From the UHGV virus genome UHGV-0110022: DNA of 48,769 bases. One strand, 5' to 3'. Each line of letters opens with the position of its first letter. The first letter of the stretch is position 1. The position numbers and the translations under genes are program-made. The notes under the pieces were generated by a model. The model was not told the DNA's origin. It ran no database searches and saw only the letters and a list, made by a program, of their open reading frames with translations. Source of the stretch: a virus. Shown piece after piece: positions 6,202-48,769 of the stretch.

Positions 6202-6203
6202 TC

Positions 6204-32134: not shown

Positions 32135-32884
32135 ATGCATCGCATAGACACGAAAACCGCGCAGAAGGATAAGTTCGGCGCGGGTAAGAACGGTTTTACC
32201 CGTGGTAACCCCCAGACCGGCACGCCTGCCACCGATCTGGATGATGACTACTTTGACATGTTGCAGGAAGAGCTTTGCAGCGTGGTGGAGGCATCCGGTG
32301 CCAGTCTGGAGAAGGGGCGGCACGACCAGTTGCTTACCGCGCTTCGTGCGCTGCTGTTAAGCCGCAAGAATCCGTTTGGCGATATCAAATCGGATGGCTC
32401 AGTGAAAACGGCTCTCGAAAACCTTGGTTTGGGAGAAGGCTCTGCATTACCTGTTGGTGTGCCTGTTCCATGGCCTTCAGCCACACCGCCAACAGGCTGG
32501 CTGAAATGCAACGGTGCGGCATTTTCTGCTGAAGAATACCCGGAACTGGCAAAGGCTTACCCGACAAATAAATTGCCTGATTTACGTGGTGAGTTCATTC
32601 GTGGCTGGGATGACGGAAGAGGAATAGATACTAACCGTAGCTTGCTTTCATCACAGGGCGATGCCATTCGAAATATAATTGGTGCATTAGTGGATGTCAG
32701 GTTTAATAACTACCCTTCTGATTCTGGCGTTTTTACAACCAGCGTCATCGGAGATGCTTCATCTGATTCAATTAAAGGTGGTTATGCAAAGCGAGTAACA
32801 TTCGATGCTTCCAGAGTTGTTCCAACTGCAAACGAAAACCGACCTCGTAACATTTCCTTTAATTATATCGTGAGGGCTGCCTGA
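32135..32884 (+). CDS. tail fibre protein (constant N-terminus plus currently expressed variable C-terminus)
   Basis: Conserved tail-fibre N-terminus ([40 protein letters not shown]); contains inversion crossover site at 32412-32437. Confidence 0.8.
32412..32437. repeat. Pin recombination site (left inverted repeat, gix/hix-like)
   Basis: CTCGAAAACCTTGGTTTGGGAGAA; inverted match to 34237-34262 (shared TTGGTTTGGGAGAAG). Confidence 0.65.
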
Positions 32885-33486
32885 TGAATAAAGTTGTCTT
32901 AAATAACGAACTCATTGCCATAAAAGCGGGAGACATAACCGTTTATAATTATGATGGTGAAACGCGGGAATATATTTCCACATCAACAGAATATCTTGCC
33001 ATTGGTGTCGGCATTCCGGCATGTTCCTGTTTAGATGCCCCTAGCCCATACAAAACTGGTTATGCAATTTGCCGTTCTGAAGATTTTAACTCGTGGATAT
33101 ATGTGCCAGACCATCGTGGTGAAATTGTCTATAGCACTGAAACAGGAGAATCAAAAGAAATCACAGCTCCGGGTGATTATCCTGAAAATACAACCACTAT
33201 CGTCCCATTAACGCCATACGATAAATGGGATGGTGAGAAATGGGTGACAGATACTGAGGCACAATATGGTGCCGCAGTAAAAGCGGCAGAAGTACAGCGA
33301 CAGTCACTAATTGATACTGCAATGGCTTCCATTAGTCTGATTCAACTGAAATTGCAGGCCGGGAGGAAGCTGACGCAGACAGAAACCACCCGACTAAACG
33401 CTGTGCTGGATTACATTGACGCGGTGACGGCAACGGATACCAGCACCGCGCCGGATGTCATCTGGCCTGAACTGCCGGAGGAGTAG
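32884..33486 (+). CDS. tail fibre assembly protein (currently expressed orientation)
   Basis: C-terminal Tfa motif LDYIDAVTATDTSTAPDVIWPELP. Confidence 0.8.
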   Translation: MNKVVLNNELIAIKAGDITVYNYDGETREYISTSTEYLAIGVGIPACSCLDAPSPYKTGYAICRSEDFNSWIYVPDHRGEIVYSTETGESKEITAPGDYPENTTTIVPLTPYDKWDGEKWVTDTEAQYGAAVKAAEVQRQSLIDTAMASISLIQLKLQAGRKLTQTETTRLNAVLDYIDAVTATDTSTAPDVIWPELPEE

Positions 33487-33889
33487 GCCATTCAATATCT
33501 GGCGCACCAGAAGTATCGACCAGTTCCAGTGCGTCCAGATAATCCAGCCACAAATTATATTGCGCCAGTTCCTCACCTTTCAGACGACCAATCGCCGCTT
33601 TACCAGGCCATTGTTTACTGTTCATGTATTCGTTGGCCTGATTAACTAATCGCTGTTTATTTGATTCAGCGATTGAGATTAATTCTTCGCTGGTAAGTGG
33701 TGGCGCATCCTGCCATGCTGGAAAACCATTTTTATCTGAACCAAGTATTTTACCATCAGGCCATGCAACTCCTGCGAACTCAGAATAAATAGTAAAGTTT
33801 ATTTTCGTAGCGTTCTCAGGAATGGTTTGGCTATCTGGTGAAATATAAAATCCCGAATCAGAGGGATTAAAATAATATGTCTTTTCCAT
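33458..33889 (-). CDS. alternative tail fibre assembly protein
   Basis: C-terminal Tfa motif LDYLDALELVDTSGAPDIEWPTPP; convergent with the plus-strand tfa. Confidence 0.75.
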   Translation of the reverse strand: MEKTYYFNPSDSGFYISPDSQTIPENATKINFTIYSEFAGVAWPDGKILGSDKNGFPAWQDAPPLTSEELISIAESNKQRLVNQANEYMNSKQWPGKAAIGRLKGEELAQYNLWLDYLDALELVDTSGAPDIEWPTPPAVQAR

Positions 33890-33891
33890 AG

Positions 33892-34262
33892 TTAATACCC
33901 CACTGCCATCCAGTAAATTGAATTTGTTGTAGCAGAAGTGTAAGTAAATCTGATTTTAGTTCTGTTGGTACTTCCAATATCAAAGCCCACAGAACGGGCA
34001 GAAGGATCATTAGTTGAAATAAGAGCGTTTACCGAACGACAAGCAGCAGGGAAAGCTACAGGTAATGTTATATCAACTGTTCCAACACTTCCTCCGGTTG
34101 GTGAGACAGAAAAACTCCCCCATTGAATAATCATCCCCCCAGGTAATTTCTGGTATCCATTGGCGGTCAATGAGTTACCAAAGTTGTTCATATCCGGTAC
34201 CTGATTTTCTCCTGTCCCCACATTCCGTTTTGCCGCTTCTCCCAAACCAACGTTTATGAAAA
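33892..34262 (-). CDS. promoterless alternative tail-fibre C-terminal segment
   Basis: Open frame runs through the right recombination site (..INVGLGEAAK..) matching ..[10 protein letters not shown].. at the left site, so inversion would fuse it to the constant N-terminus. Confidence 0.55.
34237..34262. repeat. Pin recombination site (right inverted repeat)
   Basis: TTCTCCCAAACCAACGTTTATGAAAA; internal dyad symmetry typical of Hin/Gin-family sites. Confidence 0.65.
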
Positions 34263-34316
34263 TGCAGAAATAACGAGCAAATGGCATCATTCCTGCTTTT
34301 GTCAGAGGGATCCACT

Positions 34317-34871
34317 ATGCTTATTGGCTATGTACGCGTATCAACAAATGACCAGAACACCGATCTACAACGTAATGCGTTGAACTGTGCAGGATGCGAG
34401 CTGATTTTTGAAGACAAGATAAGCGGCACAAAGTCCGAAAGACCAGGATTGAAAAAACTGCTAAGGACATTATCGGCAGGTGACACACTGGTTGTCTGGA
34501 AGCTGGATCGGCTGGGGCGTAGTATGCGGCATCTGGTCATTCTGGTTGAGGAGTTGCGCGAACGTGGCGTTAATTTTCGCAGCCTGACGGATGCTATTGA
34601 TACCAGCACACCGATGGGGCGTTTTTTCTTTCATGTGATGGGTGCCCTGGCTGAAATGGAACGAGAACTGATTGTTGAACGAACAAAAGCTGGACTGGAA
34701 GCTGCTCGCGCACAGGGACGAATTGGGGGACGTCGTCCCAAACTTACACCAGAACAATGGGCGCAGGCCGGACGATTAATTGCAGCAGGAATTCCTCGCC
34801 AGAAGGTGGCGATCATCTATGATGTTGGTGTATCGACACTGTATAAGAAGTTTCCGGTCGGAGATAAATGA
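34317..34871 (+). CDS. pin: serine DNA invertase (Pin/Gin/Hin family)
   Basis: N-terminal MLIGYVRVSTNDQNTDLQ with catalytic Ser, C-terminal HTH; 184 aa. Confidence 0.85.
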   Translation: MLIGYVRVSTNDQNTDLQRNALNCAGCELIFEDKISGTKSERPGLKKLLRTLSAGDTLVVWKLDRLGRSMRHLVILVEELRERGVNFRSLTDAIDTSTPMGRFFFHVMGALAEMERELIVERTKAGLEAARAQGRIGGRRPKLTPEQWAQAGRLIAAGIPRQKVAIIYDVGVSTLYKKFPVGDK

Positions 34872-35197
34872 AACCGCAGGCTCGTCGTATGCAAGAAAGT
34901 GCTGCGGCTGGCTGGCCAGCTTCTGATAGTGCGAATATTGAATGATTTCTATCTGTTATAGATTTTACCGTATTTCGGCATGAATGAAACTGAATATCCT
35001 CCCACCGATTCTTCATGACTTTACGCCACTGTCTCTAGGGCTGCTATGTGCCAAAAGCAGACTGACTAACTCAATAGTGGGTCAGTCAAAATGAGGGATA
35101 CGTCGACTCCTGTTACTGTTATCAATTATATTGTAGAATCAGAAAGCAGGCGTCAAAGACCTTAAATATTATTCGATACCTTAGGGATGTAAGTGAT

Positions 35198-35680
35198 ATG
35201 CTCGACAATATGAATGAATATGAGGAATTCTTGTTCCATAGGATTGATGATTCGGATTTATTGACAGGATTTGTTATTGGCCATTTAGTGATTGAACATC
35301 TTCTTGAAGAGATAATTCTAGGCTATGACATCAAGCTCAGAAAACATTTTCTTACATTGAGTCATAGTAAAAAAATAAACTTCATAAATTCTTTGGAACT
35401 AATACCTGATAACGTAGCAAGTTGTTTGCAAAGTATTAACAAAATAAGAAATAAATTTGCTCATCAATTAGGTTACAAGCCGAATAAAGGTGATTTATTG
35501 AACCTAATTGAGCAATGTATAGATAGTTTTAACGATATGACCGACGGACTTGAACAACTTCATGGTGCTCTAAAACAATGTGATGATCTACTTGAAACAC
35601 AAGAAAAAGACGGAGTTGGGCTAGCTGATCTCTTTATACAAGTGGTCTACGATCTAGAGGGGTACGCCAAAAAATATTGA
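35198..35680 (+). CDS. HEPN-motif protein (160 aa), candidate abortive-infection/RNase-type cargo
   Basis: R-x4-H motif in IRNKFAHQ; AT-rich; lies between invertase and att fragment. Confidence 0.45.
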   Translation: MLDNMNEYEEFLFHRIDDSDLLTGFVIGHLVIEHLLEEIILGYDIKLRKHFLTLSHSKKINFINSLELIPDNVASCLQSINKIRNKFAHQLGYKPNKGDLLNLIEQCIDSFNDMTDGLEQLHGALKQCDDLLETQEKDGVGLADLFIQVVYDLEGYAKKY

Positions 35681-35893
35681 GTCATTATTCTTGGGGTAGC
35701 CCTCCAATTCGGTGACGCATATTTTTGTTAGTTATTGGTATTAACAGGTAACTGCCGCTTCTCGCTCATAGCGAAACTTAAACCTAGTAAACTCGTCAGC
35801 TCCGTGCCAGGATCGGAAGTTGCAAAGTTTCGGCATTTTATGCCAGTGAGTTCCTAATTTCTAATCAACCTCTTCATTATAGGAGTTAGTAAA

Positions 35894-36103
35894 TTGAAAA
35901 TCGATTGGCATAGCTCATTACTGACCAGTAACAATAGCATGGATAAAAACTATAAAAATACACAAAACGTTCGTCTTTTCATGATTAAGGAATGTGGTGA
36001 AGATTTTCGATTCGATCGTGAATTTATGATGTGGATACGTAATGATGATCCGAAAACTTTGGGTGATGTTATCAATGAGTGGAAACGCAGACATTCGTTT
36101 TAA
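35894..36103 (+). CDS. hypothetical protein (69 aa, TTG start)
   Basis: AGGAG RBS 8 nt before TTG; AT-rich. Confidence 0.35.
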   Translation: MKIDWHSSLLTSNNSMDKNYKNTQNVRLFMIKECGEDFRFDREFMMWIRNDDPKTLGDVINEWKRRHSF

Positions 36104-36382
36104 TAAGCCAAGCCCGCTTTTCGCTCATAACAGACATTCACTACAGTTATGGTAGAAGGTATGCATGCTGGGTGGGGAAAGTATGAAGGAAAAGAAGACT
36201 GCTGCGCCGTTTGTCGTCACATTTATCTTCATTGGCTATGCAAGTCGTAATACAAGGTGGGACAAAACTGAGACACATAAGGCCTCGCAATGACTTGCAA
36301 GGCTTTACATGTTTTGATGTGGTGGGACGTGTGAGCGCAGTGTTGATGGGGTAATGCTTTGAATTAGAAGCGGATTCTTATA

Positions 36383-36428
36383 ATTCGTAATGCGAAGGTC
36401 GTAGGTTCGACTCCTATTATCGGCACCA
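36383..36428 (+). tRNA. thrW: tRNA-Thr 3' fragment (anticodon loop to CCA end); prophage att core / attR-like
   Basis: ATTCGTAATGCGAAGGTCGTAGGTTCGACTCCTATTATCGGCACCA matches the 3' part of tRNA-Thr(CGU) as recalled; 5' acceptor strand GCCGATA absent upstream. Confidence 0.65.
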
Positions 36429-37008
36429 TCAACAGAAAATCCCGTAAAAACAGCATTCTTTAGCATGTTTATCTAACGGTTTGTAACTTCTGTTCTAACG
36501 TCTGTTAGCACTGGTAAACGCCTTTGCGTTGTATCGGCTCAAGTATTGTACAACGTACTGGCGGGTAGTTACCAGGCTCAAGCCCGAACAGCATTAGAAA
36601 TTATGCCATCCCTTGAAGCTAAAAGAGTTGCCGGACTCTCTAAACACATCACTTGAACCCTTAGCGATACGTTCCGCGCTTCGTGCGGCGCTCAATGATG
36701 CTACACGTCGAGATGACGTTGCAGAAAATAAACAGGCGTAATGTTGGGAAGACTAACCGGATCGGGAAAGAATCCGGCTCTGCCACGGTTTCGATCACCG
36801 GAGTATAACGATCACCTGATAAGAGAACGTGCTAAGGCTTTATCCTCCCTGCGAAGGGATTACACCCTGCGGAAGCGCTACGCGCCGCCTTTTCTTATGT
36901 GCCCAACACGGCACGTAATGGTCATCCATTATCTGCACCATTGTAACTTTCGTTGTACTGCCTCTCTGATGTACGTTGAGCGCTGGCAGATTCAGCGGAG
37001 GGGATATC

Positions 37009-37167
37009 ATGTCAAAAGCTAACCAAAAAGCAGCCACGAAGCGCAACAACCGTAAGATTCACGCCCGTAAATTCCTGGCAACACCAGAGGGGAAAGCCTG
37101 GCTTGCTAAGAAGCAGGAAGAGCGAGAGGAAATCAAGTTGGCGCGAGCTGCAAACTTGATGTTTTGA
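37009..37167 (+). CDS. small basic protein (52 aa)
   Basis: GGAGGGG RBS 5 nt before ATG. Confidence 0.4.
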   Translation: MSKANQKAATKRNNRKIHARKFLATPEGKAWLAKKQEEREEIKLARAANLMF

Positions 37168-37178
37168 GATGGGGCTAA

Positions 37179-37979
37179 TCAGCCCCTATTGCCCCTATGC
37201 TTTTTTTCGAATCTTGTCACAACTCTATCCAACCATTTGGGTTCTTCTCTAAGATCTGAGTAGTAACAATTTTCTGGAACCGCGTTCCAGAAAGCAGTTA
37301 TTGCGTTAGCAAAATCTACAAATTGATCTTCTGAGACATGTAAATCGTCATGGTTAGGGACAATCTGCGTGCCTCTAACATCGGTGGGGTTTGGGTAATA
37401 CTCAGGATGATCAACTGATAGTGTTTGATGTGCAGGGCCGTCTCCATGCTTGTATACGTTTACCACCAAGTTACAGGCTTTTATCCTTTCTCCGTATTCG
37501 GTTCCATTGATTGTGAGGCCAATCCATTCGAGCAAATCAATTAGCTGATGGAAAGTTAAATTCCAGATCATGGGGGTAATCAATTCTCTTTCACACCAAT
37601 TACTTAGCTCTTTGATAGTATGTTCTCTTAGTTTTTTATCAAACTGATGATACATACCTGCTGTCAACGCCAACAATACGGTATTTTGCATCTCCAGAAG
37701 CGACCATACATAATAAATTCCCTCATGATAGGCTTGCTCGTAGGCCGCCATTGGGTCATCGTTATCTTGATCAAAATACTCAGCAGTAGTCTCCAAAAAC
37801 TGTTGTTCTCTCTTCTCTGCTTCTTGTTCTAAATCACCAAACTGAGAGAGAAGCCGCCGCCTTGCCTCAGAAACGTAAAATTCATGGGGTTCAAGAAAGT
37901 ATGGAAGATCGGCTCTGGCTAACCAGAAGGTGACAAAATTTTCAGTAGACATACATTTCCTCAATGAAGCGATAGACAT
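37179..37979 (-). CDS. hypothetical protein (266 aa)
   Basis: Long ORF; no recognisable motif; start uncertain. Confidence 0.45.
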   Translation of the reverse strand: MSIASLRKCMSTENFVTFWLARADLPYFLEPHEFYVSEARRRLLSQFGDLEQEAEKREQQFLETTAEYFDQDNDDPMAAYEQAYHEGIYYVWSLLEMQNTVLLALTAGMYHQFDKKLREHTIKELSNWCERELITPMIWNLTFHQLIDLLEWIGLTINGTEYGERIKACNLVVNVYKHGDGPAHQTLSVDHPEYYPNPTDVRGTQIVPNHDDLHVSEDQFVDFANAITAFWNAVPENCYYSDLREEPKWLDRVVTRFEKKHRGNRG

Positions 37980-38115
37980 TTTGAGGTTATGTTATCTTCG
38001 GTGAGGGTTAAAATCCTCAACTGATTCAATGGAATTGTCATTTGGTTTGAAATGCGGTAAAAGAATAAAATTCGTAATGTACGCTTTGCAGAAACAATCT
38101 GAAAATGAGGTGGTT

Positions 38116-38343
38116 ATGAGTGAACGTTACGAATTTTTACCCAATTGCTTCCTGAAAGTCTCTATCTCATCGGGTTACTTTACTGCCATCCTTGATGGTT
38201 CGCTTCCTCCTGATACCCCTGGTTCTGTTCATGCTGATAATGCCACGCAAGTCATAATCGTACTCGATTCCTACTTCCAATTGACTGACTTACAGCATCA
38301 AGGAATTGCTAATTATCTTTGCTCTCAAGGGATGGAACTTTGA
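38116..38343 (+). CDS. hypothetical protein (75 aa)
   Basis: GAGG RBS before ATG 38116. Confidence 0.3.
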   Translation: MSERYEFLPNCFLKVSISSGYFTAILDGSLPPDTPGSVHADNATQVIIVLDSYFQLTDLQHQGIANYLCSQGMEL

Positions 38344-38798
38344 TAGATTGGTTGCTTAATGTTGATAATCTGACCATGCTTGCCGCATGGGCTGGGTTTG
38401 CACTATCCATTTTCCAGCTATTAAAATCCAGAACAGATCTACGCCTTTTCTTAGGTTGCGATCAGTATGAAGACAGAATTTATGTTTCCAACAAAAGCGC
38501 CCATGATGTGACGATAAGTTCGGCGGGCATAGTAACCGCCAGCGGACGCCTTAGCGATTGTTCTAACGAACATTGTGATGAATACATGATCAGCCCCATG
38601 TTGCCACGCCGATTAAAAGCCCGTGATGAAATGATCTTAGAAGTACCATTCATCAATAAGGCTCACCATAATAAGGTGCATCATCGCGGAGGGGTGTATG
38701 TTACTACATCTGATGGGAAGCTGTTCAGTGATGTTAGTTGGCTGCGTCGTCGCTGGTGGTGGATATTGTCTCTGATCCTACGTGATTCCAAGCAGTGA
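38319..38798 (+). CDS. hypothetical protein, possibly membrane (start uncertain)
   Basis: ORF with hydrophobic N-terminal segment; no clear RBS. Confidence 0.3.
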   Translation: MLSRDGTLIDWLLNVDNLTMLAAWAGFALSIFQLLKSRTDLRLFLGCDQYEDRIYVSNKSAHDVTISSAGIVTASGRLSDCSNEHCDEYMISPMLPRRLKARDEMILEVPFINKAHHNKVHHRGGVYVTTSDGKLFSDVSWLRRRWWWILSLILRDSKQ

Positions 38799-38856
38799 TT
38801 ACTTATACACCGCACCAGACCACGCTGGTTATCTGCTTGTCTTCCTTCTTCAATCG

Positions 38857-39054
38857 TTACTCCTCTTCAAAGGTCATTGTGTAGCGGCATTGCTGCGACG
38901 GCCTGAGCGTCACTGTCTCCGTAAAGTTGGCGTTGGAATAAACGCAAATCTTCGCGTTGTCTGTCTCCTGTTCGTCACTGAGAATCAGGGTTATCTGTCC
39001 GGCATTCGCCAGGACTGGCATTACTGTCAGCGTCAGCACAAGCAAGCGTTTCAT
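38857..39054 (-). CDS. small secreted protein (65 aa with signal peptide)
   Basis: AGGAG RBS 7 nt before ATG; signal peptide MKRLLVLTLTVMPVLANA; directly downstream of the recombinase. Confidence 0.45.
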   Translation of the reverse strand: MKRLLVLTLTVMPVLANAGQITLILSDEQETDNAKICVYSNANFTETVTLRPSQQCRYTMTFEEE

Positions 39055-39064
39055 GCGTATCTCC

Positions 39065-39697
39065 TTATAAGTCCATCTCATTGATCACACGGCTAACGGC
39101 TTGCTTGTCTAAATCCAGATAGCGCCTGGTGTCAGTGATGTTGCTGTGATTAAGCACGGTCATAGCTAAAGCGATGTTGTTTGCTGAACGCTTGTAGATG
39201 GCATTCCCGCCAGCTTTGCGGAAGCTGTGAGCTGATACAGTGCCATGAATACCGATAGCTTTAGCGGCCTCTGCGATCTGCTTGCTCACTTCTTCGCGTC
39301 GTACAGGCGCTTGCTTGTTCATTGATCGGTTACGCTGGCTTCTGAACACATGCACATCATGCGGATACTCAGCACGGCGACGAGCAATCATCTGCACCAC
39401 TGGAGCAGGGAGAGTGAGGGCTTTACGCTTCCCTGTCTTCTGTTCTTCTATGTCAATCTCACCGTTGATCACTTCGTCGAAGCGTAACGCTACGGCATCC
39501 CCCACACGCAGTACAGCGGCTTGCATCATTAACGTAACGTCAGCTATCAGGCTCTTGTTATGAGCGTTTAGCCACTCCCTGATCGCTTTGGCTTGCTGTT
39601 CGTCTAACACTACTGCTCTGTTCAATTTACCCTCCCATAAAGACACACATCTAAACTCAACGAAACAAATAATATGATCAATTTCAGTAAGTTGCAA
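39065..39697 (-). CDS. small tyrosine recombinase (catalytic domain only, FimB/FimE-size)
   Basis: Catalytic residues in LRVGDAVALRFDEV (Arg), HSFRKAGG (His-x-x-Arg), TDTRRYL (Tyr); possible TTG start at 39625 after GGGAGGG RBS, giving 186 aa. Confidence 0.55.
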   Translation of the reverse strand: MQLTEIDHIICFVEFRCVSLWEGKLNRAVVLDEQQAKAIREWLNAHNKSLIADVTLMMQAAVLRVGDAVALRFDEVINGEIDIEEQKTGKRKALTLPAPVVQMIARRRAEYPHDVHVFRSQRNRSMNKQAPVRREEVSKQIAEAAKAIGIHGTVSAHSFRKAGGNAIYKRSANNIALAMTVLNHSNITDTRRYLDLDKQAVSRVINEMDL

Positions 39698-40384
39698 TAT
39701 AAATGATCAAAAATCGAACTGTCTTGTGTGTGGTAAATGGCGCGATTGCGTCCAGTGCTTAACGACCTCCAGGGCCGCCTCCAGATCGAAAATTTCTTCT
39801 CCTCTAAATATCTTGAACAAAATCATGATGTTGGCATTTATAAACATGTGTTTGAACATTGCCAAATCCTCAACTCTGCACGAAGAACAGCGGCAACAGC
39901 GGAACATCACACTACCAATGCTTGTGTGTGGTTATTGTCTATCTCATTGATTTAAATCTGATAAATGTAAGGTTGTTAGGCGAGGGCGGGGCTAACCTGC
40001 CTGTATGCACAGATTATGCGGAGTTTATGCACTTGAAACTGAGTGTGTAATGAAATGATTAGAATGCTAATCAATTGGTGGATTTTGGCATGAAAAAGAA
40101 ACATCGTTTCATTTTAGAAAACTCGTTCAGCACATTGCACCTGTCATGAAACTCCTCATTGTGGACAATGATCGCTGTGAGCCGCATGGCGCAAGGCTTT
40201 ACGCAAAGTGAGTGATGGTTACTATCTTGCTGACTATGGCAACTTTACCCATGTAACAACGGCAATCTTTACCTGTCATTTAAGATAGGCTTAGCTATGA
40301 TTATCGTGTTGTTTTGATAGGAATAACCTCTCGTTACTCTTAGTGTTGTTGCATGGATGAATCAGAGTTAGTTGGGGGCGTTAT

Positions 40385-40464
40385 ACATCAAAATGATGTA
40401 TAGATGCATGGGATACGCATCAAATTGATGTATGGATCGGCAAACTACACATCAAATTGATGTT
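40385..40464. repeat. three phased palindromic repeats (putative regulator binding sites)
   Basis: CATCAAA(A/T)TGATG at 40386, 40418, 40450 with exact 32-bp spacing. Confidence 0.5.
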
Positions 40465-41014
40465 CTATACAAAGAGATTCTAAAAGCGATCTCTAAAAGA
40501 GAGCTTTTAGAAGATCTTGTTAAAGATTCGCTTTGCTGGCGCGTATCGCCTGGCAAGTGACCTGATTCGCCTTTGGGGGCTACTCGGTCAGCCGCTCACG
40601 ACGCAGCGTAGCGCATCTGTCTGTGATTGTGCCAGGGCTTCGCCCTCGTGAAACGAGGCACAGAAGCTATGCGCCGTGTGCGCAATGTCTTTCAGGATAA
40701 CTTCTGCCTGTCTTCCATGCTCCGCATTCATCCATGCAAAGTTAGCCCACGGCTAAGGATTCACTGGTCGCTGATGGCTCCAGTTCATCCAGCCTCAATC
40801 CAATACCATCACCTACTATCCTGATAACTAACGTTATCCCTCAGTAGTTGTGCTATTGGTTTCGGGAGTAAGTGCCAGAGGGCGGCGGTAACGCAAACGG
40901 AACGCCCCAGACGCGCTGAGAGCGAATTTGAGAGGATAGGGAGGGGATTGCAACTCTCAGGCTTTCAAACCTGTTAGAAAGCGATAGACCGCGTTTTATG
41001 ATGACATGAATGAG

Positions 41015-41094
41015 TTGATCACAACGTGGAAATGCGCTATAATTTGAAAGGGATTGAAATAAGTGTTGACATTTAAATCATTTCATGTTAAAGT
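41015..41094 (+). promoter_or_regulatory. tandem sigma70-like promoters
   Basis: TTGATC-17 nt-TATAAT (41015-41043) and TTGACA-17 nt-TAAAGT (41066-41094). Confidence 0.45.
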
Positions 41095-41189
41095 AAATGA
41101 TGTAGGGTGATGAAAGCATTCATCCCGTCCTCATCTCAGGCATCCAGCCTAACGCAAACAATCCAACTTACACCGCACTATCAGGCAAC

Positions 41190-41438
41190 GTGATTAACGT
41201 TCTCCCTGGATGGTGTTTCTGTGTTTCTAACGCAAGGAGAACCAAAATTAAGTATTTTAATCCAGAACTTGTCTTCGAGGCTTTAAAGGCCGGAAGCCAG
41301 ACGCGAAATGCAATAAACAGCCAGCGAGCAGCCGCACAACGGCAAGGATATTTCGAACACGCTGAAAGATTGCGTAAAGGAATCGAACTTTACGATCAAT
41401 GGAAAGCTGAACAGGCTGAAACCACCACCAACGAATAA
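41190..41438 (+). CDS. hypothetical protein (start uncertain)
   Basis: ORF with internal AAGGAG at 41233 but no in-frame ATG after it. Confidence 0.3.
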   Translation: MINVLPGWCFCVSNARRTKIKYFNPELVFEALKAGSQTRNAINSQRAAAQRQGYFEHAERLRKGIELYDQWKAEQAETTTNE

Positions 41439-41456
41439 ACCAGAAGGAGAAACCAA

Positions 41457-41633
41457 ATGAGCGAAATCCAGAAGAAGAAACCAGCCGGAACATTCGTAAA
41501 ACTGCCGGATGAAGTGTTTAGTACTTTGTTCAAAGAGGCGCGAGCGAGAGGCGTAACAGTGCAGGAGATGTTAATTGACGCTGCAACCACACTTTCCACA
41601 TCAATTAAGAACGGAGAACGTTCTACCAAATAA
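41457..41633 (+). CDS. small DNA-binding-like protein (58 aa, possible ribbon-helix-helix), not in the ORF track
   Basis: AGAAGGAG RBS 7 nt before ATG; translation MSEIQKKKPAGTFVKLPDEVFSTLFKEARARGVTVQEMLIDAATTL... Confidence 0.4.
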   Translation: MSEIQKKKPAGTFVKLPDEVFSTLFKEARARGVTVQEMLIDAATTLSTSIKNGERSTK

Positions 41634-41647
41634 GGATACACCCTAAC

Positions 41648-42388
41648 ATGACTGACATTATAAACAGTAAGGCTTTTAGTTTCACCAACACCGAAGACGC
41701 ATTTAACGAATGCACCAGGATCACCAATCTTAAAACAGGCGTAACAGAGTCCCTGTCTCCTGCTGATAAGCAGTTTTACGTCAGAATGCGCCATCGTTAT
41801 TATCGCTTTGCGATAGAGTTGGGCGGTACTTATTACGATGACATTGATCAACTTGGTGCAAGTATTGGTGTCAGCTCGGCTACGGCAACACGTATTGTTG
41901 CAAAGTTGAAGAAAATCGGACTGATCGCCAGTAATAAGCCAAAGCGCTCTAACCAATGGACTATAACGCCACTCACGCCGCAAAACTTCACCTTTGAACG
42001 TGATCGTAATGCGATGGAACGTGATTCCGCGCCGGAATGGGTAGATTGTCTGAAACATCCCGTGTTTGGCAAAGCTAAAGAAGACGTAGCGCCAGAGGAA
42101 GAAAAACAGCAGTCAGTGCCAGAAGAGGCCAAAGCAGATCCGAAGCCGGAGAAGCCAAAGAAAATGCCTACGAAGAAACCCGCCTCCATTCCAGCTAAAG
42201 ATATTAAGATAGAGCCAGTTAATTTAAACTTTCTTGAGGGTTATCGGGATGAATGGGAGAATCCTGAAAAGAATCTACCAGTTTCACAACATCCGAAAAT
42301 CAGATGGCTACTTATTAACGGATACCTGGACACAGAGAAGAATCCAAAACTTAAACCAATCTACGAGGAAATAGAACATTTATGCTGA
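41648..42388 (+). CDS. HTH-containing protein (246 aa), possible replication/regulatory protein
   Basis: Winged-helix-like segment IGVSSATATRIVAKLKKIGLI; Lys/Pro/Glu-rich linker. Confidence 0.45.
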   Translation: MTDIINSKAFSFTNTEDAFNECTRITNLKTGVTESLSPADKQFYVRMRHRYYRFAIELGGTYYDDIDQLGASIGVSSATATRIVAKLKKIGLIASNKPKRSNQWTITPLTPQNFTFERDRNAMERDSAPEWVDCLKHPVFGKAKEDVAPEEEKQQSVPEEAKADPKPEKPKKMPTKKPASIPAKDIKIEPVNLNFLEGYRDEWENPEKNLPVSQHPKIRWLLINGYLDTEKNPKLKPIYEEIEHLC

Positions 42389-42843
42389 AAACGGTTATAC
42401 CCAAACAATACAACGAACGTGATCTTAACATCATCCATCTTGCCAGTTTATTAAATCCAGAAGTTGAAAGAGGTGTTGCATTCGAACAAGCGCAAGAACT
42501 TGTAGATGTTTACGCTGAGCGAGGTGAATCAAGTTACGCTAATGCTCTTGTTACGCTATTCAATGCAGCGATGAAGCCACCGAAAGAGATAGAATGTAAA
42601 ATGACATCCCCACATCTTCACGATAAGAATCTGTCTCCTTCGGAACGTCTGGTATTAATGCACCTCGAATCACTGCCATCATTAACAAATGTGAAACAGG
42701 AGTCAATAGCGATAGTGTTGGGGATAAGTGTGGCAACTGTATCCAGTGCGATTCGCAAGCTCCGCCGCAATGATTATCTAACTACTACGTTAATCAAACC
42801 TGGTCGCGGTAAAGGATGCGACATTACACTTACGACTAAATAA
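42382..42843 (+). CDS. winged-helix transcriptional regulator-like protein (153 aa)
   Basis: HTH-like segment IAIVLGISVATVSSAIRKLRRNDYL. Confidence 0.4.
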   Translation: MLKTVIPKQYNERDLNIIHLASLLNPEVERGVAFEQAQELVDVYAERGESSYANALVTLFNAAMKPPKEIECKMTSPHLHDKNLSPSERLVLMHLESLPSLTNVKQESIAIVLGISVATVSSAIRKLRRNDYLTTTLIKPGRGKGCDITLTTK

Positions 42844-42947
42844 CAACAATCGGGAAACTTTTATGATTACTGCTTTATGGTGGTTCACCATATTCTATGG
42901 CGTTTACGTTATAACCAGACAAGGAGTTTCCCCTCTACGAGGAATGA

Positions 42948-43331
42948 ATGGGACGAAAAGAACGAAGTAACCTTGTTAGAATCGAAAAAGCCACACGCAT
43001 CAGCAAACGTAAATACACCTCTTCTCTACAAGACCTCGCACGAGAGTCTATTCCTGGTGAGATGGTGACAACTATTAAAGAATATCCCGCAGTAGTACCA
43101 AATGGATTAGAGTTTGAACTATTGCAGGATGTTCTATCGTCAACGGATAACGTTTATTACAAACCACGACGCAGACGCGAATATATTATAGATAGTAGCC
43201 ATCTCAAGAAATGGCAAATAGCAGGATTTGAACATTACGCCGATTATATTGGGTATTGTCAAACCTGGGGGCTATCCCAGCACACACAAGAGTTTGATAT
43301 TCTCTTTGACGACAAGGAAAACAATGAATAA
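42948..43331 (+). CDS. hypothetical protein (start uncertain)
   Basis: ORF only. Confidence 0.25.
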   Translation: MGRKERSNLVRIEKATRISKRKYTSSLQDLARESIPGEMVTTIKEYPAVVPNGLEFELLQDVLSSTDNVYYKPRRRREYIIDSSHLKKWQIAGFEHYADYIGYCQTWGLSQHTQEFDILFDDKENNE

Positions 43332-43662
43332 TAAAACTATGGACACAGTGAACACCCTAATTAACTCTTTCCACGACAACTGGCATTTACCAACCTTACA
43401 GCTTGTTAATGCAGCGTGGCGTGAGAGAACGCCCTCCGCGCTTCTGGAAGCGGTGCAATACACTGAACAGGCAATCACTGCCCTTGAACATCTGCAAACG
43501 TCTGTAGCTCGTTTGGTGCAGCGTGACGGCAGTTCGATCACACCAGAAGAAGCGTGGCGTGTAGCTAATGACCTTGAGGAGCTTGCTTGCTCTCTGCAAT
43601 ACATCACCGTTGAACTCGGAGAGCTTTCCATCCAGATCGCGGAAGAATGCGCCATAACATAA
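43324..43662 (+). CDS. hypothetical protein (112 aa)
   Basis: AAGGAAA RBS before ATG 43324. Confidence 0.35.
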   Translation: MNNKTMDTVNTLINSFHDNWHLPTLQLVNAAWRERTPSALLEAVQYTEQAITALEHLQTSVARLVQRDGSSITPEEAWRVANDLEELACSLQYITVELGELSIQIAEECAIT

Positions 43663-43677
43663 AAGTTACTAAATGTC

Positions 43678-43706
43678 TTGACATTATGTGCTATATGTGT
43701 CATAAT
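43678..43706 (+). promoter_or_regulatory. near-consensus sigma70 promoter
   Basis: TTGACA(43678-43683)-17 nt-CATAAT(43701-43706). Confidence 0.55.
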
Positions 43707-44236
43707 GAGTTATAGGGTAAGTATTCGAATCACTTCACCCTCGTATGTCAATACGCACTCCTTGAGAATGCCGTTCCCATAGCGGCATTCTCTCCCTCTG
43801 AATGCTATTTCTGAAAGTGTTGGTTCTTTGTCTTGTTTGTTCCGAAGGAATGCGCGGGATGTAATATCTCGTTGTGTTGGTATTGCATCGCAATCACCGC
43901 GCATCTCCGACTTTTTCAGAAAGGGCATTCGCTCTTTGCTCATTCATTCCGTTAGGATGAATGTAGTCAGACTGAATAAACGCCGTCAGCGGTAGTTACG
44001 TTCAGGCTGGCAATCTCTTATTACTATTCCAGTGGTGATATTGAGATTCCATTCCCACTTCTCGCCATGACAGAAGGGCTTCTGTTTTGAAGTGGGAGCA
44101 ATGACGGGCGATCCTACTTCTGTTATTCGTAACAGTTGCGCCCTTCATTTTTTCAAGAAGCCATTCTTTAACATCATAATCCTCCGAAACGAAAATGATT
44201 TTAACAGAATGCTTTCTAACAAGGGCATATTCTCCA

Positions 44237-44258
44237 GGGGCTTAATCGCCCCTTTTTA
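44237..44258 (+). terminator. rho-independent terminator at the end of a structured leader
   Basis: GGGGC-ttaatc-GCCCC followed by TTTTT. Confidence 0.55.
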
Positions 44259-44328
44259 ACAATCTGCATGTAACACTTCCGTTATTAATGGAAGGATAAA
44301 CGCAGTTATAACGCGAAGGAACAACACA

Positions 44329-44544
44329 ATGTTCTTAATAAACAATCGCGACCGAATCCTAAAATACAAATCCGAAGTGATTCAAGTTAATCCTGAGTTA
44401 ATAGCTAAAGTGGCTGAAATGGCAGGATGTACCGTTGAAGAAATAGAAAAAGCTGTAGACCAGTATTTCCCTTCTGAGGACACACCTCAACTTAGTATGC
44501 AGGAACGGATCGCAATCAAATCCAAGGAAATCAAACAACAATGA
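44329..44544 (+). CDS. hypothetical protein (71 aa)
   Basis: AAGGAA RBS; first gene of the capsid-like cluster. Confidence 0.4.
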   Translation: MFLINNRDRILKYKSEVIQVNPELIAKVAEMAGCTVEEIEKAVDQYFPSEDTPQLSMQERIAIKSKEIKQQ

Positions 44545-44900
44545 TTGTAGACCTAACCGAACTTTTCCCAATTCGTAAGAGTTTCACTGACGTATTGAGC
44601 TACGCCACTGATTCTTTTGCAGTCGTAGAAGGCCGTGTTTTCGACCTGCCAGCAGATATTGAATGCGGCGATGTTATCGGCGCTGATGGCGCTCTATACA
44701 CCTCCGGCGATGATGCCTTTGTGGTGGTAAGTGATTTCGTGAGTGCTGGCGACGGTAAAACCGTGAATGTCCTACGTGCGCCTAATGTTGGTAGCTTCGT
44801 AGCACTGAAAGCCGACAACCTGCACGCAGCTAATCACGCCGCAGCTATCACCACGCTCGAATCCAAAGGGTTCGTATGCCGTCCATTCTTCACCTCTTAA
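44541..44900 (+). CDS. head decoration protein-like (D-like, putative)
   Basis: 119-aa Gly/Ala/Val-rich protein immediately upstream of an E-like capsid gene; ATGA overlap. Confidence 0.4.
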   Translation: MIVDLTELFPIRKSFTDVLSYATDSFAVVEGRVFDLPADIECGDVIGADGALYTSGDDAFVVVSDFVSAGDGKTVNVLRAPNVGSFVALKADNLHAANHAAAITTLESKGFVCRPFFTS

Positions 44901-44916
44901 TCAAGGAAGATAAATA

Positions 44917-45948
44917 ATGAGTAAAATCGCAATTGGGCGTGAGATGGTCGATTTAGCGCCAATCTTCCAGGCTCTGCCGGAACGTAACTATCTTATGAAT
45001 GCCCTCGACCTATTCGACGGGGTAGGTGTTCAGAATCCGAAAGTGGTGGTGACACAGCTTCTGGATGATAACTACAGCCTGTTTAACACCCCGCAGAGCC
45101 GTTATTCATCAAACCACGACACTACCGCGCGTCAGAATGGCAAAGAATACCTTATCGAGATTCCTTGGTTTGCAAGGGAAGATGAGTTTAAACCTGTAGA
45201 CGTACAAGGCCGCAGAGTGCAGGGAACGGACTACGAGCAAACCGTTACCGACCTGTACACCGAATACACTGGCAAACATAAGATTGCTTATCTGCGTACC
45301 CGTGAGTCTTACCTGGCCCGTGCTCTGTTCAAAGGTGAAGTTTATACGCCTGCAACTGATGACCTACTGATCTCTTATGCTGAACTGTTCGGTGTGGTGC
45401 CAATGACAGCCAGCGTGAGCACAGCGACAGCGGCACAGGATTTTGATGCGATCTTAGACAAAGTTCAGGCTGCCGCAGGTGGATTGGCTGGACAGATTGA
45501 ACGAGTGATCGTATTCGCTAAACCTGCTGCATTTAGCCAGATTCGCTTCTCTGACAGTATGTCTAAGGCGTTCCAGTATGTAGCGCCATATGACGACCGT
45601 AACCTATTCTACCAGCGTCACGAGCTTCTCCCTGGTGTTAGTACGTTTAGCCTACCTGGTGCGCCTATCGACATTGTTAAAGTGACAGATCCGCTGATCC
45701 TTGCACAGATGCCAGATGATGCTGACATGGTGGCGGTTCCGGTGTTCAGTAAAGGCACAAATGCTTATCAGAACATCTACGGCGCTGCCTCTGGTAACTT
45801 TGCGCTGATCGATGCTGCACCTGCTGAATACTACTCTTGGGGCTACCTGAGCGAGCGCGGCGATGCTTACCACGTTATGCACGAAAACAGCGCATTACCA
45901 GTGAACCATGCGTTAGGTATGCAGGTGAAGATCACCATCACTGCTTAA
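44917..45948 (+). CDS. major capsid protein, E-like family (putative)
   Basis: 343 aa, lambda gpE-like size and composition; follows decoration-like gene. Confidence 0.5.
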   Translation: MSKIAIGREMVDLAPIFQALPERNYLMNALDLFDGVGVQNPKVVVTQLLDDNYSLFNTPQSRYSSNHDTTARQNGKEYLIEIPWFAREDEFKPVDVQGRRVQGTDYEQTVTDLYTEYTGKHKIAYLRTRESYLARALFKGEVYTPATDDLLISYAELFGVVPMTASVSTATAAQDFDAILDKVQAAAGGLAGQIERVIVFAKPAAFSQIRFSDSMSKAFQYVAPYDDRNLFYQRHELLPGVSTFSLPGAPIDIVKVTDPLILAQMPDDADMVAVPVFSKGTNAYQNIYGAASGNFALIDAAPAEYYSWGYLSERGDAYHVMHENSALPVNHALGMQVKITITA

Positions 45949-46067
45949 TGAGCAAGCGGGAGCCTGACCCGCTGGAAATAATCAGGCTATTGAATATGGC
46001 GTGTGAACGTTGGGAACATCTCCCCAGTGTTCCCGCCCTTTTTTATTTCCAGAATGAGGAAAGATAA

Positions 46068-46265
46068 ATGCAAGTGATTGTAAAAAGCGCGGGGCTTCAC
46101 CTCGCCGTAAATGCTGAAACAGCAGAAGAGTTATTAAATCTGGCGGGAGTGTGTCGTGTGCTTGAAATAGATCACGGTCATCTACGTCAGTTATTACATC
46201 GTGGGCGTAGTGTATCAGATGCACTTAATTATCTGGTGAGTAAAAAAGGCGGTGGCGATGCTTGA
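46068..46265 (+). CDS. hypothetical protein (65 aa)
   Basis: GAGGAAA RBS. Confidence 0.35.
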   Translation: MQVIVKSAGLHLAVNAETAEELLNLAGVCRVLEIDHGHLRQLLHRGRSVSDALNYLVSKKGGGDA

Positions 46266-48102: not shown

Positions 48103-48253
48103 TTGTGATGTAAATCACATGGGAATACCACATATTGCGCTCGCTTTGTAAAGGATGTGTATATGTGGTGTTTTTCTTTGACGCCGCTTCGTTTGTCCCT
48201 TACCCTTAAAAGGGTAAGCAGTTCACTCTTTATCTCCAAGATGAGGTGTTTTT

Positions 48254-48382
48254 ATGGCTAAGAAAACAGTAGTTCGTTCTGCGATAACTGGTCAGTTTGT
48301 TAAGCCCATTGAAGCTAAACGACATCCTGATACTACGATAACTGAAACTATCAAAATCCCTACCAAGAAAGCTAAGAAATAA
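48254..48382 (+). CDS. small basic protein (42 aa), not in the ORF track
   Basis: GAGGTG RBS 5 nt before ATG; translation MAKKTVVRSAITGQFVKPIEAKRHPDTTITETIKIPTKKAKK. Confidence 0.3.
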   Translation: MAKKTVVRSAITGQFVKPIEAKRHPDTTITETIKIPTKKAKK

Positions 48383-48440
48383 AAATATCTCAAAGTGCCC
48401 ATAGCGGCGCTTATTCATTTGAATGTCTGGAGAGAATTAA

Positions 48441-48719: not shown

Positions 48720-48769
48720 GTTATCGGGGGATGGATAATCCCCCCTTAATTACTGGACGTTGTAATTTA

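Follow-up and report, generated by a model that had tools for sequence, protein, structure and literature searches.

Based on sequence comparison and structure prediction, we propose with moderate confidence that the cargo near the attR end of an E. coli prophage encodes a stand-alone DUF4145/MtlR-like HEPN ribonuclease of 160 amino acids, which would act as a prophage-carried, single-protein Abi defence in the manner of HepS and RAZR. The neighbouring DUF6434 gene would be an unrelated passenger, and the cargo would have been placed by exchange at short palindromic boundary sites, here called A and B. The window, that is the whole stretch of viral DNA analysed, measures 48,769 nucleotides. 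The host element is a Mu-tail/HK97-head prophage at thrW, whose cargo slot lies after pin and beside attR and is laid out as follows (strand given where assigned).

32419..34255: invertible tail-fibre segment, with tail collar and Caudo_TAP ORFs in both orientations
34281..34871, plus strand: Pin-type serine DNA invertase (Resolvase E 1e-51, HTH_7 3.8e-15), left edge of the slot
34872..35038: left backbone flank of the slot, 94% kept in E. coli prophage remnants with other cargo
35039..35062, plus strand: boundary site A, GGCTGCTAT GTGCCA AA AGCAGAC, an imperfect palindrome of 24 bp that bounds the cargo on the left
35063..35197, plus strand: cassette leader 5' of the HEPN gene, with promoter-like hexamers at 35103-35132
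35198..35680, plus strand: 160-aa HEPN ORF with ATG start, DUF4145/MtlR-like and distantly HepS-like
35753..35776, plus strand: boundary site B', TGCCGCTTC TCGCTC AT AGCGAAA, degenerate, right end of the HEPN cassette
35795..35818, plus strand: boundary site A', GTCAGCTCC GTGCCA GG ATCGGAA, left end of the second cassette
35894..36103, plus strand: 69-aa DUF6434 ORF with TTG start and an AGGAG Shine-Dalgarno sequence 8 nt upstream
36112..36135, plus strand: boundary site B, GCCCGCTTT TCGCTC AT AACAGAC, right end of the cargo
36136..36382: right backbone flank, the prophage end beside attR, widespread in E. coli
36383..36429, plus strand: 3' fragment of tRNA-Thr (thrW), the prophage attR core, 100% identical to annotated E. 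coli tRNA-Thr genes

The first-pass annotation had described an AT-rich HEPN ORF, a second small ORF, pin and the tRNA-Thr fragment, and each of these is present at or close to where it had been placed. GC content is 31-35% across 35100-35700 versus 50-60% in the phage late genes, and ARAGORN found no complete tRNA in the window. The pin gene adjoins the invertible tail-fibre segment, which ends in 20-bp inverted crossover-type repeats (32419-32438 and 34236-34255, 95% complementary: AAACCTTGGTTTGGGAGAAG / CTTCTCCCAAACCAACGTTT); the true start of the invertase is probably the ATG at 34317 (MLIGYVRVST...). Located where the late region ends, the HEPN gene shares the orientation of the late genes and of pin.

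The 160-aa protein contains the string INKIRNKFAHQ, in which R84 and H89 form an R-x4-H motif. Its AF2 model (pLDDT 90, pTM 0.86) is all-helical, with helices spanning residues 5 to 159, disorder in residues 1-4 only and no predicted strands. R84, N85 and H89 are invariant in 22 of 22 close homologues, and across 46 relatives at 22-39% identity the sole invariant columns are E33, R84, N85 and H89. The second acidic residue, E33, lies in an N-terminal helix (GHLxIE) and is invariant in both alignments. A HEPN signature has been defined as Rx4-6H with a polar residue after the R and a second acidic residue (PMC3710099), and the conserved residues here agree with it. Taken by itself the R-x4-H motif says little; it is meaningful because R84, N85 and H89 are kept across the relatives and the predicted fold is that of HEPN. 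All Pfam matches of the protein belong to the HEPN clan; the match to DUF4145 (PF13643) scores 22.8 bits against a gathering cut-off of 23.1 (E 9.4e-5), and 16 of the 46 relatives match this family at E<=0.01. Alignment and model mark the ORF product as a true HEPN-fold protein whose catalytic-type motif is intact, and the HEPN identity claimed in the first pass is borne out by the Pfam matches, the model and the invariant residues. An HMM search for HEPN/Abi families had been suggested at that stage. Besides the HEPN-clan matches in Pfam, PADLOC returned nothing beyond a 0.015 match to a CARF-HEPN model, and NCBIfam gave no match. The best PHROGs match is phrog_5483 (function unknown, 6e-10), and tblastn against INPHARED phages found neither the 160-aa protein nor a HepS fragment. 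Database copies are named 'hypothetical protein', with some homologues labelled DUF4145 in UniRef.

The family comprises 37 homologue clusters at 62-99% identity from many gammaproteobacterial genera, and the gene is under strong purifying selection (dN/dS 0.04-0.11). Members include WP_240584909.1, WP_411919326.1 and WP_269761241.1. Its settings vary. The window copy is in an E. coli prophage, a Yersinia copy follows the tail-fibre assembly gene of a prophage, a Klebsiella copy occupies the replication/nin region of a lambdoid prophage, and many homologues come from marine gammaproteobacteria; the gene also occurs outside recognisable prophages. No protein family was common to the +/-3 kb neighbourhoods of the 16 loci compared. 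The leader travels with the gene, being conserved along with it in Pectobacterium (80% over 35048-35683). The cassette was found in none of 5,426 complete E. coli genomes.

Which known proteins does this family resemble? The best PDB match of the family profile is HepS (E 2.8e-4), and hhalign of the broad profile against HepS gave 96.6% probability (E 4.8e-10) over 85 columns. HepS (STM14_3211; PDB 9oij, 9oik) is a solo HEPN Abi anticodon nuclease of the Salmonella prophage Gifsy-1 (Sargen et al., Nature 2026, PMC13043305). It is a tetramer that is activated by the J protein of Siphoviridae, cleaves tRNA anticodons and confers an Abi phenotype, its activity depends on the R and H equivalent to R84 and H89, and its authors list 393 homologues (PMC13043305). 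The catalytic helix is near-identical in the two proteins (CLxxxNxIRNK[FY]AH, reading RNKYAH in HepS and RNKFAH here), and both are small, single-domain, prophage-encoded HEPN proteins without a conserved partner gene. HepS lies in an accessory region beside the Gifsy-1 replication genes (PMC13043305), a position that recalls the Klebsiella copy of our family. However, identity is 18% over the structural alignment and sequence similarity is confined to about 85 core columns. HepS has 188 residues, and its unstructured N- and C-terminal segments form a beta-sheet with the phage J tail-tip peptide; the 160-aa window protein lacks these segments. Because the similarity is core-only and the terminal segments are absent, the trigger, oligomeric state and tRNA targets of HepS are not transferable to the window protein.

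A second relative in kind is RAZR (PD-T7-4), a single-protein Abi system that joins a zinc ribbon to a DUF4145 HEPN RNase (Nature 2026, PMC13017515). Its nuclease activity depends on the R and H, needs no antitoxin and is switched on by phage proteins (PMC13017515). The window protein has no N-terminal Cys4 zinc ribbon and no PADLOC match to the PD-T7-4 models, and the ring-assembly activation of RAZR cannot be assumed for it. The top structural matches of the model are MtlR, which ranks best, and YggD (PDB 6kcr, 3brj and 3c8g; identity 10-17%). MtlR belongs to the DUF4145-like assemblage, and many MtlR members are deemed non-catalytic (Anantharaman et al., PMC3710099). MtlR proteins reside in mannitol operons and a large fraction lack Rx4-6H, whereas the window family combines an invariant motif with a setting in mobile elements.

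Based on these likenesses, the HEPN protein may oligomerise such that the R/H motifs of two subunits build a composite, metal-independent RNase site. By analogy it would be inactive at rest, and if so no antitoxin would be needed; binding a protein of the infecting phage would activate it, and the activated protein would cut tRNA or other RNA, halting translation and phage production. A defence role, as the first pass had supposed for this cargo, is plausible by analogy: HepS is the nearest characterised relative, and many known defence systems are found in cassettes with these boundary sites. Several observations speak against a defence nuclease. Neither defence library (PADLOC, NCBIfam) recognises the protein; the likeness to HepS is limited to the catalytic core, with the trigger-binding segments absent; the best structural match, MtlR, comes from a family with many non-catalytic regulators; the marine gammaproteobacterial homologues have no demonstrated prophage setting, and the cassettes also carry non-defence genes.

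The 69-aa ORF was raised in the first pass as a possible partner or antitoxin, and the two genes could be pictured as a toxin-antitoxin pair with the HEPN protein as toxin and the DUF6434 protein as antitoxin. They lie side by side in the same orientation and are inherited together as a 1088-bp block at 99.4% identity in E. coli and Klebsiella prophages, and many HEPN proteins are toxins of such systems (PMC3710099). Distribution tells another story. The ORF encodes a DUF6434 protein (Pfam), and no DUF6434 gene stands beside the HEPN gene at any of 11 loci from other genera. In the chromosomes of Rahnella, Raoultella and Erwinia, DUF6434 homologues with 74-90% identity are surrounded by metabolic genes and have no HEPN gene in their vicinity, and the two genes occur together only in the near-identical E. 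coli/Klebsiella block. An internal B'/A' junction (35753-35818) separates them; the A' core begins 36 nt past the B' core, the modal spacing of such junctions, and the two genes are therefore in separate cassettes. The DUF6434 model has no significant structural neighbour and no NTase fold, the ORF list and Pfam yield no nucleotidyltransferase ORF of the HEPN-MNT antitoxin type in the cassette, and no literature mention of DUF6434 was found. Rfam matched no RNA family in 34000-37500 and so gives no support for an RNA antitoxin. Given the lack of a conserved partner of any kind, a classical toxin-antitoxin arrangement is unlikely, and the pairing of HEPN with DUF6434 in particular is highly improbable, being largely refuted by the distribution of the genes. 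The DUF6434 gene is, judging from where its homologues lie, an independent passenger in its own cassette and not a partner of the HEPN gene.

The remaining alternatives concern the HEPN protein itself. By our own arithmetic, the chance of an R-x4-H in a protein with 3 Arg and 7 His per 160 residues is ~13%, so that about one in eight proteins of such composition would be expected to hold one, and the motif might be a chance match in a spurious AT-rich ORF. The 37 homologue clusters, the low dN/dS, the confident model recovering a HEPN fold and the invariance of the motif leave this idea with practically no credence; on alignment and modelling grounds it is already refuted. A role in modulating prophage or host expression, as a non-catalytic regulator of MtlR type or as an RNA-binding protein, would agree with MtlR and YggD as top structural matches and with the placing of MtlR, many of whose members are regarded as non-catalytic, in the DUF4145-like assemblage (Anantharaman et al., PMC3710099). 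Non-catalytic MtlR proteins, however, have lost Rx4-6H, while in the present family R, N and H never vary, even among relatives at 22% identity. The HEPN loci show neither a mannitol operon nor any other conserved regulatory surroundings, their neighbours being prophage or island genes, and the closest sequence relative of known function, HepS, is an active nuclease that needs the equivalent R and H; we regard a regulator as unlikely. An active HEPN RNase might instead serve the prophage in another way, through degradation of host or competitor transcripts in its own lytic cycle, counter-defence or stabilisation of the element by addiction. The position of the gene where the late region ends, in the orientation of the late genes and of pin, would suit such a role, moron cassettes are not solely defensive, and the trigger-binding parts of HepS are missing. 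The gene nevertheless has its own conserved leader with promoter-like elements, moves independently of any phage backbone and is found outside recognisable prophages too, and both of the solo DUF4145-like HEPN proteins that have been characterised, HepS and RAZR, act in defence, which makes this other service a minor prospect. A single-protein HEPN defence remains our preferred reading.

The cargo consists of two adjacent cassettes, each bounded by 24-bp imperfect palindromes, with A on the left (centre GTGCCA) and B on the right (centre TCGCTC). The sites follow the patterns arm-NN-GTGCCA-RR-arm for A and arm-YY-TCGCTC-AT-arm for B; compared with the consensus GTCCGCT...AGCGGAC, the copies in the window are degenerate. 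Comparison with a Klebsiella prophage gives 99.4% identity over exactly 35048-36135 (1088 bp), so that the shared sequence runs from inside A to the end of B. E. coli genomes keep the flanks (34871-35062 and 36114-36432) with different cargo, either a lipase-family gene or an unrelated 310-aa protein, and their backbone identity resumes at 36114-36116, within B. Against E. coli L001 and L002 the window aligns in the flanks only. The breakpoints fall at the edges of the central 6 bp of the sites. These alignments support an exchangeable cargo slot between pin and the thrW fragment, and the whole cargo (35048-36135) would have been placed between pin and attR by exchange at A and B. The 310-aa protein, annotated as 'HEPN domain-containing protein', is unrelated to the window family and has no Pfam match. 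A role for Pin as the responsible recombinase is unsupported, as no pin gene is found within 6 kb of the Klebsiella copy.

In viral contigs, A-to-B units carry Shosta, Shedu, Lamassu, PARIS, Gabija and type IV restriction genes, and the named defence genes in cassettes with the same boundaries include ShosTA, SduA, HerA, LmuA/B, AriA, GajA, PtuA, AbiL and mREase_IV. Genes other than defence genes (LysR, CMD, EAL, APH) occur in this cassette type as well, so the context is suggestive only. A hairpin reading of the sites was rejected: the window copies fold no better than shuffles, and in about 150 examples each of A and B, changes in one arm are not compensated in the other. A REP/BIME-like genome-wide repeat was likewise rejected, with the junction present at a median of 1 and a maximum of 5 places per E. 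coli genome.

Where else do such sites occur? In phage P2, fun(Z) lies between the same two sites, A (AF063097 15335-15358: GTCCACTCT GTGCCAAAAGCGGAC) and B (17432-17455: TTCCGCTTCTCGCTC AAAGGAAAC). The fun(Z) hotspot has the tail-fibre assembly gene G on one side and the sheath gene FI on the other (Rousset et al. 2022, PMC9122126), and a P2-like E. coli prophage holds two A/B cassettes at the G/FI position. The P2 cargo is likewise a lysogenic-conversion or defence gene; the backbone, position and cargo differ from those of the window. The first-pass annotation had instead compared the slot with prophage e14, in which the defence gene mcrA lies directly 3' of a Pin-type invertase gene (pinE) at the att-proximal end, as here. 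The notion of an exchangeable slot holds, but the mcrA parallel does not extend beyond position. No A or B site is found near mcrA; the only match in a 19-kb scan has 3 mismatches and lies ~10 kb away, so that mcrA was rejected as the same cassette type, and e14 integrates in icd whereas the window prophage is at thrW. On the shared sites, the true counterpart of the slot is phage P2 fun(Z), not e14 mcrA.

In integrons (attC) and in the PeSL mobile regulatory cassettes of T4-type phages, short palindromes bound diverse, promoter-carrying gene units arranged head to tail. The A/B cassettes resemble these in having palindromic elements that bound small, diverse units in head-to-tail order. An attC identity was rejected, with R''/R' complementarity outside the 24 bp at random level (3.7-4.2 of 12 versus 4.0). 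Crossover in attC occurs at the G/TT box, whereas in A/B cassettes the breakpoints coincide with the borders of the central 6 bp; unlike integron cassettes, A/B units are separated by a 36-bp backbone spacer, and their arms lack the covariation expected of a folded hairpin. No integron integrase was seen with A/B cassettes. Sequence-string and keyword searches found no description of the sites in the literature, although they may already have been seen in 2004 (Nilsson et al., Mol Biol Evol 21:1). Surveys of the P2/P4 hotspots from 2022 and 2026 describe the mechanism of defence swapping as unknown and do not refer to any motif of this kind (PMC9122126, PMC13586616). We put forward, tentatively and as a possibility we hold to be somewhat doubtful, that A and B are substrates of a dedicated site-specific cassette-exchange mechanism that shuttles defence and other accessory genes among settings. 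Because the central 6 bp differ (GTGCCA versus TCGCTC), A would recombine only with A and B only with B.

What are the implications of a minimal HEPN protein in an exchangeable slot? The protein would be a compact, 160-aa addition to a known kind of solo HEPN defence. If the proposed function is right, the family joins the single-protein HEPN immune nucleases, HepS and RAZR, whose mechanisms were solved only in 2026. As the trigger-binding tails of HepS are missing, infection sensing should differ, and the protein offers a cheap, well-defined test case for the activation of minimal HEPN sensors. The boundary sites are more interesting than the HEPN gene itself. If exchange at these sites is real, it would link the P2 G/FI hotspot, the pin-attR slot of Mu-tail prophages, lambdoid replication/nin regions, genomic islands and chromosomal arrays, and would account for the rapid swapping of defence systems between unrelated elements. 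Were A and B recombination substrates, the question of how such systems are swapped would become directly testable, and the sites would provide a sequence signature for new defence genes, of which the 160-aa HEPN gene is one candidate.

The ORFs, the invertase and the tRNA-Thr fragment lie where the first-pass annotation had placed them, and the window holds no complete tRNA.

Features of the slot and of the second element
32419-32438 and 34236-34255: 20-bp inverted repeats of the invertible tail-fibre segment adjoining the invertase gene
34281-34871: serine invertase gene (Resolvase/HTH_7 domains), upstream of the HEPN ORF
35039-35062: site A, left end of the cargo
35198-35680, plus strand: HEPN ORF, ATG start, 160 aa, contains INKIRNKFAHQ
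35753-35818: degenerate B'/A' junction (B' 35753-35776, A' 35795-35818)
35894-36103, plus strand: small ORF, 69 aa, TTG start, AGGAG 8 nt upstream
36112-36135: site B, right end of the cargo
36383-36429: 3' part of tRNA-Thr, identical to E. coli tRNA-Thr
37179-37979, minus strand: AT-rich ORF of unknown function (phrog_19541), second element
38029-38343 and 38319-38798: AT-rich ORFs of unknown function, second element
39065-39697, minus strand: short tyrosine-recombinase ORF (210 aa), second element
41648-42843: HTH regulators, second element
44917-45948: capsid-E-like gene, second element

In the prophage around the slot, baseplate and tail are Mu-like (GpP, Gp48, Baseplate_J, sheath), the capsid is of the HK97 type and the terminase is TerL; the GC content of the late genes is 50-60%, that of the HEPN ORF 31-35%. 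The 135-nt leader 5' of the HEPN gene (35063-35197) is conserved between E. coli and Pectobacterium about as well as the coding sequence of the gene and holds a TAGAAT -10-like element near 35133, and its conservation suggests a promoter or 5' UTR belonging to the gene. A second integrated element follows directly after the thrW fragment (36430-48769), its first 4 kb being present at 99.9% identity in nine complete E. coli genomes. Together, prophage and second element look like a tandem array at thrW.

What kind of protein does the 160-aa ORF encode? The R-x4-H motif alone is a mere lead, because by our own arithmetic about one in eight proteins of such composition would have it by chance. 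Among 5.8 billion proteins searched there were 37 homologue clusters (62-99% identity, all about 160 aa), from Pectobacterium, Yersinia, Cronobacter, Vreelandella, Chromohalobacter, Pseudomonas, Marinobacterium and Vibrio. The exact protein occurs on eight E. coli contigs and a near-identical copy on 339 Klebsiella contigs, all of these database copies being labelled 'hypothetical protein'. dN/dS, computed in pairs over the ungapped core, is 0.04-0.11, and 55 columns are invariant across 22 homologues, R84, N85 and H89 among them. On this conservation the ORF is a real gene under constraint. The HMM search for HEPN/Abi families suggested by the first-pass annotation gave, in Pfam, no matches but those of the HEPN clan, all sub-threshold: DUF4145 (22.8 bits, cut-off 23.1), HEPN_Cthe2314, RiboL-PSP and Abi_2. 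The structure prediction it had also named, an AlphaFold2 model built from the alignment, shows a HEPN fold of nine helices (pLDDT 90, pTM 0.86). Searched exhaustively with a profile, 1.84 billion representatives yielded 704 clusters at E<=1e-3, mostly of 150-210 aa, and in an alignment of 46 relatives drawn from them (22-39% identity) the sole invariant columns are E33, R84, N85 and H89. As aligned, this pattern is the published HEPN signature of Rx4-6H, a polar residue after R and a second acidic residue (Anantharaman et al., PMC3710099). The confident all-helical model, the invariant R84, N85 and H89 and the HEPN-clan matches uphold the HEPN assignment, and a chance motif, for all its expected frequency, is hardly credible. 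A non-catalytic regulator resembling MtlR, the mannitol operon repressor family that the same authors group with DUF4145 (PMC3710099), is an unlikely reading of a protein whose family keeps R84, N85 and H89.

HepS is the top PDB match of the family profile by sequence (E 2.8e-4). Against full-length HepS (188 aa; R100 and H105 at their published positions), rebuilt from two partial database entries, hhalign gave 96.6% probability (E 4.8e-10, 85 columns) with the broad profile and 94% (38 columns) with the narrow one; by these matches HepS is the nearest characterized relative. HepS ('HEPN Solo'), encoded by the Salmonella prophage Gifsy-1, is an abortive-infection protein; the tetramer is expressed constitutively, is not toxic and has no partner gene (PMC13043305). 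Another solo HEPN defence of the DUF4145 type, RAZR, is switched on by phage proteins that form rings (PMC13017515). The 160-aa protein shares solo architecture and catalytic helix with HepS, but has neither the segments at the N and C termini with which HepS binds its trigger nor the zinc ribbon of RAZR; it would therefore be of the same functional kind as HepS without being its orthologue. With the fold, motif, selection, solo status and cassette context of the gene established, we propose that its product is probably a solo HEPN RNase, a prophage-carried abortive-infection sensor-effector. The protein would be inactive at rest, would be switched on by a phage protein and would then cut tRNA or other RNA; for oligomerization, activation, substrate and phenotype the proposal follows the analogy of HepS and RAZR. 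That the protein is an RNase with some other use to the phage we consider improbable.

The 69-aa ORF, which had been raised as a possible partner or antitoxin, is a full-length DUF6434 domain (E 1.7e-28). It adjoins the HEPN gene only in a near-identical E. coli/Klebsiella block (tblastn and neighbourhood clustering, 16 loci), and the clustering of these 16 loci found no protein family common to the HEPN-gene surroundings in other genera. Its homologues, 59-99% identical, are small proteins that stand alone in Rahnella, Sodalis, Erwinia, Pantoea and Raoultella. In the three locus sets examined their neighbours are genes for acetyltransferases, glutathione peroxidase and LysR, and a HEPN gene does not occur close by. 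A partnership is not borne out, since the adjacency is limited to one block and the homologues stand alone. Judged by this distribution the DUF6434 protein is not a partner of the HEPN protein, and a toxin-antitoxin pair, which their adjacency in the window might bring to mind, is very unlikely.

BLAST of the region against the fetched loci gave unusually sharp homology edges. Two Klebsiella-type viral contigs have exactly 35048-36135 in common with the window (99.4%) and nothing beyond; Pectobacterium homology likewise begins at 35048. E. coli genomes match only at 34871-35062 and 36114-36432, and carry between these flanks a class-3 lipase family gene, on the opposite strand, or an unrelated 310-aa protein. 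The cargo slot of the first-pass annotation is thus confirmed, E. coli keeping the flanks with other cargo and the Klebsiella contigs carrying the cargo alone. The alternative cargo (E. coli loci L001, 4260-5192, and L002, 4220-5236) encodes candidate accessory or defence proteins; the 310-aa protein is named HEPN domain-containing by PGAP, has no Pfam match and is unrelated to the 160-aa family. The homology edges fall on two motifs, cassettes starting with GTGCCARRAGCRGAC and ending with GYCCGCTYYTCGCTC. Each motif with its flanks forms a 24-bp imperfect palindrome, A (consensus GTCCGCT-NN-GTGCCA-RR-AGCGGAC) and B (GTCCGCT-YY-TCGCTC-AT-AGCGGAC) having the same arms and different centres. As the B'/A' junction lies between A and B, the HEPN and DUF6434 genes are two adjacent cassettes.

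Similar units were seen in other loci. In Pectobacterium the HEPN gene's neighbour within the cassette is a second, divergent HEPN paralogue keeping RNKISH; in Pectobacterium sp. PL64 a single A..B cassette (L003, 5849-7351) holds the homologue and this 169-aa paralogue, which matches the family at 97.5% in hhalign. Such pairing hints at HEPN variants that are tandem or heteromeric. A DUF2971 cassette and a reverse-transcriptase gene lie in the island around this cassette. In a Klebsiella lambdoid prophage (L016/L017, 5851-8594) a third A..B cassette follows the HEPN and DUF6434 cassettes and encodes, on the opposite strand, a 428-aa protein with no Pfam match; the array sits between replication genes and a LexA-like/DUF968/C5-methylase region. 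In E. coli AR_0128 (L001, 1403-1425), 23 bp identical to the window A site (GGCTGCTATGTGCCAAAAGCAGA) overlap the 5' end of what is annotated as a tRNA-Pro, unusually long at 82 nt, and open a 2.3-kb A..B unit that also holds IS1.

IMG/VR was scanned per motif (at least 120 loci for A and at least 120 for B), and the association of A with B was tested because short patterns could turn up by chance in so large a collection. Among the matches listed, loci picked for A alone held 63 B sites (1 in reversed-sequence controls) and those picked for B alone 71 A sites (0 in controls). Among these listed matches, the 245 loci contain 123 ordered A..B units (388-5582 bp) and, in addition, two pairs of 72 bp; the B-to-A gap, measured between the cores, is 33-36 nt in 31 of 39 (mode 36), and 113 distinct units yield 140 protein clusters. 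Cargo lies in both orientations relative to A-to-B and includes the defence-related ShosT/ShosA, SduA, HerA, LmuA/B, AriA, GajA, PtuA, AbiL and type IV restriction, further PDC-S39, RelA_SpoT, S_4TM, TIR and HEPN_LA2681, and also LysR, CMD, EAL and APH genes. In the same listed matches a conserved GTTGnTAA stands 12 nt after the A site in most cases, and many B-to-A spacers are filled by a consensus resembling CCTTCAGCTCAGTTA; either might serve as a -35 promoter element or belong to the site itself.

Of 5,426 complete E. coli genomes, 1,822 contain the junction element (median 1, maximum 5 places per genome), one junction lying in a P2-like prophage between tail-fibre assembly and sheath genes and others in defence islands. 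The classical lysogenic-conversion gene of phage P2, fun(Z), blocks T5. Like the window cargo, it is flanked by A (15335-15358) and B (17432-17455; AF063097), so the P2 G/FI hotspot uses the same cassette boundaries. To judge by its title, Nilsson et al. 2004 may already have noticed these sites at the P2 Z/fun locus. The parallel drawn earlier with e14 mcrA stands for the position after a Pin-type invertase but not for the boundaries, there being no A/B sites around mcrA. On the Rahnella chromosome (L247-L249, about 4200-7600), B-like/A-like junctions separate small chromosomal genes for DUF6434, glutathione peroxidase and acetyltransferases; gene content after the junctions varies between strains, and the DNA match to the window DUF6434 cassette (91.6%) extends over 35822-36128 and stops within the B site. 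A/B cassette arrays may thus not be confined to prophages.

What are these sites? Folded hairpins were rejected, since the copies in the window showed no better folding than shuffled sequences and the arms vary without compensation; so were integron attC sites (no complementarity beyond the 24 bp), genome-wide REP-like repeats (low copy number per genome) and a known RNA family (no Rfam match over 34000-37500). When one cargo is compared between different backbones, identity breaks off at the outer edges of the central 6 bp. These breakpoints would suit a double-stranded recombination site in which 9-bp arms enclose an asymmetric 6-bp centre, and so would the difference at two positions between the centres of A and B. 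Recombination through short homologies between dispersed copies would account for the swaps as well; the analysis identified no candidate recombinase for A/B, and Pin is not near the Klebsiella copy. Surveys of the P2/P4 defence hotspots from 2022 and 2026 state the exchange mechanism as unknown and mention no motif, repeat or palindrome (PMC9122126, PMC13586616). The HEPN gene adds to the solo HEPN kind, and its boundary sites are the more unusual of the two findings.
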